Source: a virus
Taxonomy: Duplodnaviria > Heunggongvirae > Uroviricota > Caudoviricetes
IMG/VR virus record: IMGVR_UViG_2529293142_000033
Direction: 5' to 3' (one strand)
DNA: 54,512 nucleotides
The notes under the pieces: model-generated
Told to the model about the DNA's origin: nothing
What the model saw: only the letters and a program-made list of their open reading frames with translations
Databases searched by the model: none
In this document: piece by piece, positions 10,324 through 11,138 of the stretch
Numbering within the stretch: the stretch's first letter is position 1
How the letters are laid out: each line of letters opens with the position of its first letter
Translations under genes and position numbers: made by a program

Positions 10324-11138
10324 GTATGGAGCTGATGGTTAAAGCGATGAAAATTCGAGTGGGTAATCCATTACGAAAACTGGTTCTGATCAAGCTGGCT
10401 GATAATGCCAGCGATCAGGGTGAGTGCTGGCCCAGCTACCAGCATATTGCTGACCAGTGCGAGATTAGCAAACGTTCTGTGATGAATCATATTGCGGCCC
10501 TTTGTGAGTCCGGGCTGGTAAAAAAAGTCACCCGGAAAGGTGAAAAAGGTAACTCAAGTAATATCTATCTCCTTCATCTGGATGGTGCAGGAGATTCACT
10601 AGGGGGTAGTGCAAATAATTCACTATCTGGTGCAGCAAATTCACCAGGTAGTGCAGGAGTTGCACCAGGGGGTAGTGCAGGAGATTCACCCAGAACCAGT
10701 CACTCTTTTGAACCAGTCAAAGAACCAGTCAATGAACCAATAGCTGTTGGTGCATCTGCTGATGAGTCTGTGCGAGTTCGTTCAAACCGACCGGAATACT
10801 CTCCGGAGTTTGAGCAGGCATGGCTGGCATATCCCAAACGTGCTGGTGGCAATTCAAAATCTGCAGCCTTCAAAGCCTGGAAAGCCCGTTTGAATGAGGG
10901 GGTAAATCCCGAAACCATGCTGGAAGGTGTGAAACGCTATGCGGGCTGGGTATCTGCGATGGGTAACAGCGGCACACAATTTGTGAAACAGGCTGTCACG
11001 TTCTTTGGTCCGGATCGTCATTTCGAAGAATCCTGGGAAGTTCCTGCGGTATCTGCAGCCAGACGCGAGGACCCGTACTTCAAAGCCAGTTACGACAACG
11101 TGGACTACAGCCAGATCCCGGCAGGATTCAGGGGGTGA
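10320..11138 (+). CDS. replication initiation protein, O-like (N-terminal HTH)
   Basis: ggagg RBS; N-terminal HTH segment (LRKLVLIKLADNASDQGECWPSYQHIADQCEISKRSVMNHIAAL); iteron-like repeats inside the gene as for lambda O/ori. Confidence 0.65.
   Translation: MSMELMVKAMKIRVGNPLRKLVLIKLADNASDQGECWPSYQHIADQCEISKRSVMNHIAALCESGLVKKVTRKGEKGNSSNIYLLHLDGAGDSLGGSANNSLSGAANSPGSAGVAPGGSAGDSPRTSHSFEPVKEPVNEPIAVGASADESVRVRSNRPEYSPEFEQAWLAYPKRAGGNSKSAAFKAWKARLNEGVNPETMLEGVKRYAGWVSAMGNSGTQFVKQAVTFFGPDRHFEESWEVPAVSAARREDPYFKASYDNVDYSQIPAGFRG
10583..10730. repeat. iteron-like direct repeats inside O-like gene (candidate replication origin)
   Basis: four to five copies of about 21 bp GGTAGTGCAGGAGATTCACC-like unit (10583-10690) followed by three copies of GAACCAGTCA (10692-10735). 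Confidence 0.6.

Follow-up and report, generated by a model that had tools for sequence, protein, structure and literature searches.

The viral record IMGVR_UViG_2529293142_000033 (Caudoviricetes) is a stretch of 54,512 nucleotides, hereafter called the window, that contains a lambdoid prophage of E. coli. The early-right operon of this prophage includes the gene of a replication initiator, and the middle of this gene carries two kinds of short repeat, an array of 15-base-pair (bp) iterons and a tract of GAACCAGTCA 10-mers. Here, we propose that these repeats probably form the origin from which the prophage replicates, and that this origin lies within the gene of the initiator that acts on it. 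In the proposed model, the N-terminal winged-helix domain of the initiator would bind the five dyad-symmetric iterons (10585-10689), probably as dimers. Since the iterons lie about two helical turns apart, the bound protein could form a nucleoprotein complex similar to the 'O-some' of lambda. This complex would open the neighbouring DNA, most likely at the GAACCAGTCA tract (10690-10739). The tract is comparatively AT-rich, adjoins the last iteron and would act as the AT-rich region of lambda or the oriC 13-mers do. The C-terminal domain would then bring in the replicative helicase through the host DnaC-DnaB system. From sequence comparison we infer that the protein binds, that the strands open, that the origin fires and that the helicase system of the host is used. 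The features of the gene are:

10320-11138, plus strand: initiator gene ('O-like'), 272 amino acids, HTH_36, phrog_270
10320-10583, plus strand: N-terminal winged-helix domain, residues 1-88, with HTH_36 at residues 17-67
10541-10580: least stable duplex of the gene, GC content about 0.33, directly upstream of iteron 1
10585-10599: iteron 1, GTGCAGGAGATTCAC
10609-10623: iteron 2, GTGCAAATAATTCAC
10630-10644: iteron 3, GTGCAGCAAATTCAC
10651-10665: iteron 4, GTGCAGGAGTTGCAC, with perfect 5-bp inverted arms
10675-10689: iteron 5, GTGCAGGAGATTCAC, which adjoins the junction element at a distance that is constant family-wide
10690-10739: junction element, CCA GAACCAGTCA CTCTTTT GAACCAGTCA AA GAACCAGTCA AT GAACCA, with the 10-mers at 10693, 10710 and 10722
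10767-11135, plus strand: C-terminal domain 'class 1', about residues 150-272, helical, without a Pfam family

The array consists of five copies of a 15-bp core, GTGCAnnAnnT(T/G)CAC, with start-to-start spacings of 24, 21, 21 and 24 bp. Each iteron is made of 5-bp inverted arms that flank a 5-bp centre, and four or five of the five arm positions are complementary. With one mismatch allowed, this pattern has six matches in the window compared with 1.3 expected, and none of 100 shuffled sequences reached six; the sole match beyond the array is a one-mismatch copy at 9100. Within the window the iterons are thus confined to the initiator gene, which argues against a regulator with several operators. 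The 10-mer GAACCAGTCA occurs exactly three times in the window and nowhere outside the junction element, compared with 0.15 expected (no shuffle of 100 reached three), and a partial fourth copy, GAACCA, is found at 10734. An independent run of Tandem Repeats Finder returned periods of 21, 24 and 12. Iterons and 10-mers all lie within the open reading frame (ORF) 10320-11138, where they encode residues 89-140, GAGDSLGGSANNSLSGAANSPGSAGVAPGGSAGDSPRTSHSFEPVKEPVNEP; the iterons span codons 89-124, between the N- and C-terminal domains. An earlier note, made from the same DNA, had described four to five copies of a unit of about 21 bp together with three copies of GAACCAGTCA, as one array in the middle of an O-like gene, where it encodes a Gly/Ser/Ala-rich linker. 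The copy numbers and the location were accurate and the repeats are real, but the iterons and GAACCAGTCA are two distinct elements. The array also creates spurious ORFs at 10609-10743 (+1 frame) and 10528-10689 (minus strand), of 44 and 53 amino acids (MQIIHYLVQQIHQ...). The +1 frame of the window's spurious ORF is the frame really used for single iterons and the junction in some relatives.

By its database matches, the gene encodes a phage replication initiator, and no other replication gene can be recognised in the prophage. The protein matches Pfam HTH_36 (PF13730) at residues 17-67 with an E-value of 1.8e-11 and 44.1 bits, compared with a gathering cutoff of 25, and as a whole it matches phrog_270, 'replication initiation protein', at 1.1e-88; several 'O-like' PHROGs match too. 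The Pfam scan (E<=0.01) returned HTH_36, DnaD_N, B-block_TFIIIC and HTH_20 only, with the DnaD_N match, at the N-terminus, being below threshold, and it gave no match to Phage_rep_O, the family of lambda O, or to Rep_3. NCBIfam has no family for the initiator. Because it does not belong to the Pfam family of lambda O, the initiator can be described as an analogue of lambda O and not as a member of its family. Residues 1-47 are conserved family-wide, while residues from about 48 to 88, which include the recognition helix and the wing, are variable; the family alignment has 27 invariant columns, most of them in residues 1-48. At the nucleotide level, the gene is 98.8-99.3% identical to those of Stx2a_WGPS2 (98.8%, over the entire gene), Lys8385Vzw, 2H10 and Stx2c phages, 89% identical to sb42 of ST64B, and 76% identical to the gene of Aeromonas phage AsXd-1.

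Homologues were collected in two sets. Viral contigs were scanned for the junction sequence, and at least 120 of them have the exact element. Genomes, one per species, were searched with N-terminal peptide patterns only, which made the search independent of the repeats and yielded 80 loci, from Enterobacterales, Pseudomonas, Aeromonas, Shewanella, Marinomonas, Aliivibrio, Marinobacter, Microbulbifer, Cardiobacteriaceae and others. The two sets pooled contain 150 distinct arrays with 633 iteron copies and 18 arm pairs, and these array counts are not counts of independent events, as many arrays are related. Every one of the 150 arrays has dyad-symmetric 15-bp repeats at the same place in the gene, in two to seven copies (mostly four or five); the repeat-less homologues that the earlier note had named as a possible refutation were not found among them. 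The spacings are 21 bp (173 times), 22 bp (62), 23 bp (58) and 24 bp (166), the final interval is 24 bp in nearly all arrays, and the last iteron always ends 2 nucleotides ahead of AGAACC. The iteron sequence differs among lineages and is uniform inside each array. ST64B and AsXd-1 have the same five iterons as the window, a Stenotrophomonas phage has CTATGCCGCCAAAAAGCATAG three or four times and a Vibrio phage has AGTGACAAAATGTCAC three times, and the arrays of these last two both continue with ...AGAACCAGTCACTCTTT(T/A)GAACCAGTCA... The iteron number also varies in the window's lineage, with seven in-frame copies instead of five at loci L017 and L126. When complete E. coli genomes were searched with the surrounding 5 kb, well over half of them proved to have a homologue in a prophage. 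Furthermore, the N-terminal domain was found on 42 records of a plasmid collection, most of them non-mobilizable elements of 38-54 kb; these include many circles, ten of which are from Arsenophonus. Such elements look like phages or phage-plasmids with this initiator, which is suggestive of autonomous replication but not proof of it.

Frame-independent conservation and low variability of the arms indicate that the iterons are selected as DNA and not as peptide. A copy out of frame with the others is present in 69 of the 150 arrays, and in these arrays 72 copies in all are off the frame of the last copy. The frame change arises via a 23- plus 22-bp spacing and is recurrent in unrelated iteron classes; for example, the same DNA is read as GSAGDSP in one copy and as VVQEIHQG in the next. 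Variability was compared within the iteron class of the window, over 25 distinct gap-free arrays. It is 0.042 in the arms, 0.109 in the central 5 bp and 0.138 between iterons. Third codon positions have a value of 0.026 inside the arms, compared with about 0.24 where these genes encode the N-terminal domain. The variability of the arms is therefore a third of that between iterons, and that of their third positions is about a ninth of the value in the neighbouring domain.

These observations bear on a second explanation, in which the repeats are the DNA image of a flexible Gly/Ser/Ala-Pro linker, or a product of slippage, with no role as DNA. The region does encode a low-complexity linker, and copy number does vary within the lineage (seven iterons in L017 and L126; two or four 10-mers in L067, L097 and L053). 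However, in the 69 arrays single proteins contain one DNA repeat translated in two frames, and the encoded peptides differ wholly by lineage (GSAGDSP, PMPPKS, GSENFAL and others), whereas the DNA geometry, with 15-bp dyads at a spacing of 21-24 bp, stays constant. With the ninefold lower variability of arm third positions, and with junction codons that differ by 5 synonymous and 147 non-synonymous changes, we regard this explanation as highly improbable.

In the alignments, the sequence of the iterons changes together with the variable part of the N-terminal domain, which is the part predicted to read the DNA. Arm identity correlates with the variable part of the winged helix with a Mantel rho of 0.58, compared with 0.20 for the conserved N-terminal part and 0.16 for the C-terminal domain. 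Where the same winged helix is joined to unrelated C-termini (29 pairs), the arms are identical, and where the same C-terminus is joined to a different winged helix (14 pairs), arm identity is 0.23.

A DNA-binding role for the iterons could also mean that they are operators, through which the protein limits its own transcription or that of downstream early genes, by autoregulation or as a roadblock, with replication starting elsewhere. Winged-helix proteins of the HTH_36 type are often transcription factors, the initiators of iteron plasmids commonly autoregulate, and no strongly AT-rich tract is present. On the other hand, no similar sites are found at any promoter of the window and there is no promoter-like site in the region; a search for an internal promoter in 10200-11300 gave none. 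Moreover, the C-terminal domains of the family co-occur with helicase loaders and helicases, the PHROG annotation is that of an initiator, and the early region has no other candidate origin or initiator. We consider operators in place of an origin quite unlikely. A dual role as operator and origin is possible and is compatible with the origin model.

The second element, at the junction of the domains, is separate and family-wide and not another type of iteron. Its statistics were taken from the protein-found genome set alone, as the viral set had been picked via the junction sequence. The element AGAACCAGTCACTCTTTTGAACCAGTCA was found in 79 of the 80 loci. In 72 of these 79 junctions it has at most 5 substitutions and no insertions or deletions, and the remaining seven also have 2- or 5-nucleotide deletions. 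In seven loci the element is in another frame (HPEPVTLEPVNES), and in five of them a 2-nucleotide deletion restores the downstream frame. Over 60 distinct loci, the N-terminal 50 codons have majority fractions of 0.90, 0.92 and 0.59 at positions 1, 2 and 3, with 1070 synonymous and 338 non-synonymous codon differences from the consensus. The 12 junction codons have fractions of 0.94, 0.90 and 0.93, with 5 synonymous and 147 non-synonymous differences. The amino acids of the junction drift (T/I, P/S, H/N, F/S/L) while the nucleotides are kept. This pattern shows a tract that, by comparative evidence, is constrained as DNA in any reading frame.

The functional unit of the junction would be the 10-mer repeat, because of three kinds of variant. 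In L186 (Shewanella profunda), the sole locus that failed the junction search, both 10-mers are jointly changed to GAATCTATCA. In the Aliivibrio loci L182, L193 and L196, three 10-mers follow each other at 12-bp spacing and the CTCTTTT spacer is lost. Finally, the number of 10-mers varies in the window's lineage, with four in L053 and two in L067 and L097, all in frame. Across the aligned family, GC content is lowest in this tract (0.36), with values of 0.36-0.40 over about 30 bp, and in phages of high-GC hosts its GC content is 0.39 between flanks of about 0.6-0.7. The element is common to phages of Escherichia, Pseudomonas, Shewanella, Aeromonas, Vibrio/Aliivibrio, Marinomonas and Stenotrophomonas. 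A role of the junction as RNA or as a hairpin was discarded, since neither strand, folded as single-stranded DNA, does better than shuffled sequences (z of -0.41 and +0.22), and Rfam gave for the junction only a chance miRNA match with an E-value of 0.097. At two loci, L143 (Pseudomonas bharatica) and L179 (Erwinia tracheiphila), initiator ORFs that start at locus position 4001 enter the junction in the +1 frame and stop just past it (...HPEPVTLLNQ, then stop), with products of 174 and 118 amino acids. These are probably pseudogenes or assembly errors, and a programmed frameshift at the T-run is possible.

The junction is also the place where, by sequence comparison, C-terminal domains have been exchanged, each paired with a particular helicase partner. 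About ten unrelated C-terminal domains adjoin it across the family. The gene that follows encodes a lambda P-like protein for classes 0 and 3 (8e-30 and 2e-58), a DnaC/IstB-like ATPase for class 7, a DnaB helicase for classes 4 and 8, a gp4-like primase-helicase for the phi24B type and DUF968 for class 5. For class 1, which is that of the window, the next gene is usually PerC. In AsXd-1, the class 1 domain is followed by a DnaC-like loader and DnaB. In the Stx1a-converting phage Stx1_14744, it is fused to another N-terminal domain, without a Pfam match, in a protein annotated as 'replication protein O' (L207, 996-1904), and a DnaC/IstB-like protein follows. The Stx1_14744 gene has repeats of its own at the equivalent place, GGGAAAC about five times (seen by eye), followed by three to four copies of a 12-bp repeat of the ACAGAGAATAC type. 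The class 1 domain is presumed to be a module for the recruitment of helicase or loader. We infer that it works with a DnaC-type loader and that the prophage uses the DnaC-DnaB of its host, which it must do because it encodes neither loader nor helicase. By analogy, an N-terminal domain that reads the origin and a C-terminal domain that recruits the helicase system would follow the logic of lambda O.

Such exchange suggests a further explanation, in which the junction is conserved as a patch of homology for recombination, a joint between modules with no part in strand opening. It accounts for the ten or so unrelated C-terminal classes joined exactly at the element and for the 29 pairs in which identical winged helix and iterons precede unrelated C-termini. 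It does not explain the joint change of both 10-mers in L186 or the loss of the spacer in Aliivibrio, which point to recognition of the 10-mer unit itself, nor the constant distance to the last iteron in all arrays, nor the different short tandem repeat that an unrelated initiator family has at the same position. We therefore find it rather unlikely as the whole explanation. Recombination and strand opening at the junction could coexist.

If the 10-mers are recognised as DNA, their reader may be the phage initiator or a host protein conserved across Gammaproteobacteria, either nucleoid-associated or a replication protein. The host protein would suit an element that is the same in phages of diverse hosts, whatever their iteron specificity or helicase partner, and in L186, where the 10-mers are variant, the conserved N-terminal residues of the initiator show no unusual changes. 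Against it, the 10-mers have no DnaA-box match and, by eye, none to the IHF consensus, and the N-terminal 47 residues of the initiator are equally universal and an equally good candidate reader. There is in our view a fairly small chance that a host protein, and not the initiator, reads them.

With more reservation than for the origin itself, we suggest a two-part organisation for the origins of this large gammaproteobacterial family, which is somewhat less likely than not to be correct and which we put forward tentatively. The iterons would be a variable 'address', read by the recognition helix and wing, and the two to four GAACCAGTCA copies at a set distance would be a constant 'engine'. Either the invariant first 47 or so residues or a conserved host factor might read the engine sequence-specifically, possibly in single-stranded form, and the duplex would be opened and the helicase loaded at the 10-mers. 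If this is true, a constant engine at the domain boundary would allow helicase-recruitment domains to be exchanged without rebuilding the origin.

Several observations weigh against the origin model. The least stable 30 bp of the gene (-33.9 kcal/mol) are within 10541-10580, upstream of the array and not at the 10-mers, and the 10-mer tract is only mildly unstable, with about -39 kcal/mol per 30 bp compared with a gene average of about -42. A role for host DnaA was not supported, with no DnaA boxes in the gene and window-wide counts at chance, nor was one for SeqA, as GATC is neither enriched nor clustered. The iterons adjoin the N-terminal coding region, so that part of their covariation with it is linkage, and the Mantel test ignores shared ancestry; the frame shifts and the arm variability are free of this weakness. 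The fold of the C-terminal domain gave no significant match, so that its contact with DnaC or DnaB is deduced from gene neighbourhood only, and in the protein database the domain matches mostly partial E. coli sequences with no informative Pfam labels. In the literature searched, there is no experimental test of binding or of origin activity for any family member.

With regard to strand opening, the flank at 10541-10580 has an ordinary coding pattern across the family, with a majority fraction of 0.52 at third positions, and this ordinary variation rules it out as a conserved element. It is a possible alternative opening site. We favour the 10-mer tract because it is constrained as DNA while the upstream stretch is not, and the site of opening is uncertain. 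The earlier note had proposed a lambda-like origin and had advised a search for an AT-rich unwinding element downstream. The layout and the behaviour of the repeats as DNA sites bear out its proposal. As refinements, the initiator lies outside Phage_rep_O, and no strongly AT-rich tract was found downstream, where the 10-mer tract has about 40% GC.

The gene order around the initiator agrees with the Prokaryotic Genome Annotation Pipeline (PGAP) annotation of an E. coli prophage that is 96.8% identical (L205). In the early-right region, the genes up to the initiator are a repressor remnant, YdaS-like, CII-like (YmfL), Rha/Ash, a 74-residue ORF and the initiator itself. It is followed by PerC (YfdN), a Dam methylase, LexA-like, RusA, KilA-N, DUF968 and antiterminator Q, and beyond Q lie four tRNA genes and then the late genes. 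The genes next to the initiator are:

8951-10102, plus strand: 383-residue protein with Ash and Rha domains, upstream of the initiator
10099-10323, plus strand: 74-residue ORF, phrog_1153 (1e-45), which overlaps the initiator start by 4 nucleotides; a hypothetical protein in L205
11135-11629, plus strand: PerC/YfdN-type regulator and not a helicase loader (Pfam PerC 5.7e-09; yfdN in the PGAP annotation of the relative)

No P-, DnaC- or DnaB-like gene was found in the early region of the window, among its other large ORFs or in the early region of the PGAP-annotated relative. In this, the observation of the earlier note that no P- or DnaC-like loader gene lies nearby was correct. The combination of Ash and Rha domains is a hallmark of Shiga-toxin (Stx) phages of the Eru6, Eru7 and Eru9 types. 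The window has the arrangement that defines Eru6, a Rha/Ash protein followed by an HTH_36 protein (PMC8951638), as has Stx2a_WGPS2, which is the type phage of Eru6 (PMC8951638). The papers on Eru types classify gene content only and make no mention of iterons or of an origin (PMC8951638, PMC8044961), and in the paper that defined Eru6, the replication proteins of Eru phages are described as entirely uncharacterised (PMC8951638).

The four tRNA genes, at 16114-16423 on the plus strand, have anticodons CAT, TCT, TGT and TCC and come after the Q antiterminator gene (14975-15727). A 311-residue ORF (19476-20411, plus strand), which lies after the tRNA genes and before the late genes, weakly matches glycosyltransferase family 9 (heptosyltransferase), with an E-value of 4e-05, and may be a cargo gene. 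The close relative L205 carries, at 18432-19577, the A and B genes of heat-labile enterotoxin IIA among its lysis genes.

The initiator family drives many 'non-lambdoid' Shiga-toxin phages (Eru6, phi24B) and ST64B, as well as prophages of Pseudomonas, Aeromonas, Shewanella, Vibrionaceae and others. The outcome of the analysis is an exact and testable map of a putative origin, with five predicted binding sites and a candidate melting element. It offers a code of specificity, in which iteron arms are matched to the recognition helix, as well as a conserved nucleotide element by which such origins could be located in any genome. Since the rate of replication affects the dosage of toxin genes after induction, an origin map is of practical use in work on Stx phages. 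The junction is in addition a clear case of a coding segment that is constrained as DNA and not as protein. The principle of an origin inside the initiator gene is long known from lambda. A full-text literature search returned no description of these iterons, of the 10-mer or of this origin, within the collection searched; papers beyond it are possible. The family-wide layout, the pairing of iterons with the recognition helix, and the frame-independent 10-mer at a domain-swap boundary appear to be undescribed so far.

The origins of lambda and of Stx phages are experimentally known; they lie in the middle of O and consist of iterons and an AT-rich tract (PMC7466680). The lambda origin and those of the Stx phages 933W and P27 (six iterons) resemble the window in that the initiator gene contains, midway along it, directly repeated units that are themselves imperfect inverted repeats. 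In both, the array is located between the N-terminal DNA-binding domain and the C-terminal domain that recruits the loader, as predicted for the window, and a less stable tract, in the window only mildly so, lies by the last iteron. The number of iterons varies among relatives in both, with four or six in lambda-type phages and five or seven in the lineage of the window. However, the iterons are 15 bp long in the window and 19 bp in lambda, the window protein has an HTH_36 N-terminus and no Phage_rep_O match (E<=0.01), and the prophage has no P gene. The flank also differs, being formed of family-wide GAACCAGTCA 10-mers constrained as DNA and not of a generic, strongly AT-rich tract. Within the family, the 'O' protein of phi24B is like that of the window in its N-terminal domain, and its gene has three GGGGCAGGAGCTGCCC iterons and the junction element.

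The 13-mers of oriC and those of the unwinding element of RK2 oriV are bound by the initiator as single strands. The GAACCAGTCA copies are comparable in that two to four of these short, non-palindromic units are directly repeated beside a predicted initiator-binding array, in the least GC-rich part of the origin; in this comparison, the binding and melting of GAACCAGTCA are putative. Unlike the 13-mers, GAACCAGTCA has about 50% GC, lies inside coding sequence and is common to initiators of different duplex specificity. In phages of gram-positive bacteria (SPP1, with oriL in gene 38, and lactococcal phages, in their rep genes), the origin is also located within the initiator gene. There, the repeats in the gene are bound by the initiator that it encodes, and the loader or helicase has a separate gene downstream, which is similar to the arrangement proposed here, although the protein families and the hosts are unrelated. 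We know of no shared junction element in origins of this type. The oriL of SPP1 is mentioned in PMC5737612. Finally, the iteron plasmids of the Rep_3 type (pPS10 RepA, F RepE, R6K pi) differ in that the window protein has no Rep_3 match, in that plasmid iterons are intergenic and in that the window has no evident context of handcuffing or copy control. What these plasmids share with the window is a winged-helix initiator, iterons in phase and a specificity in which protein and iterons co-evolve.

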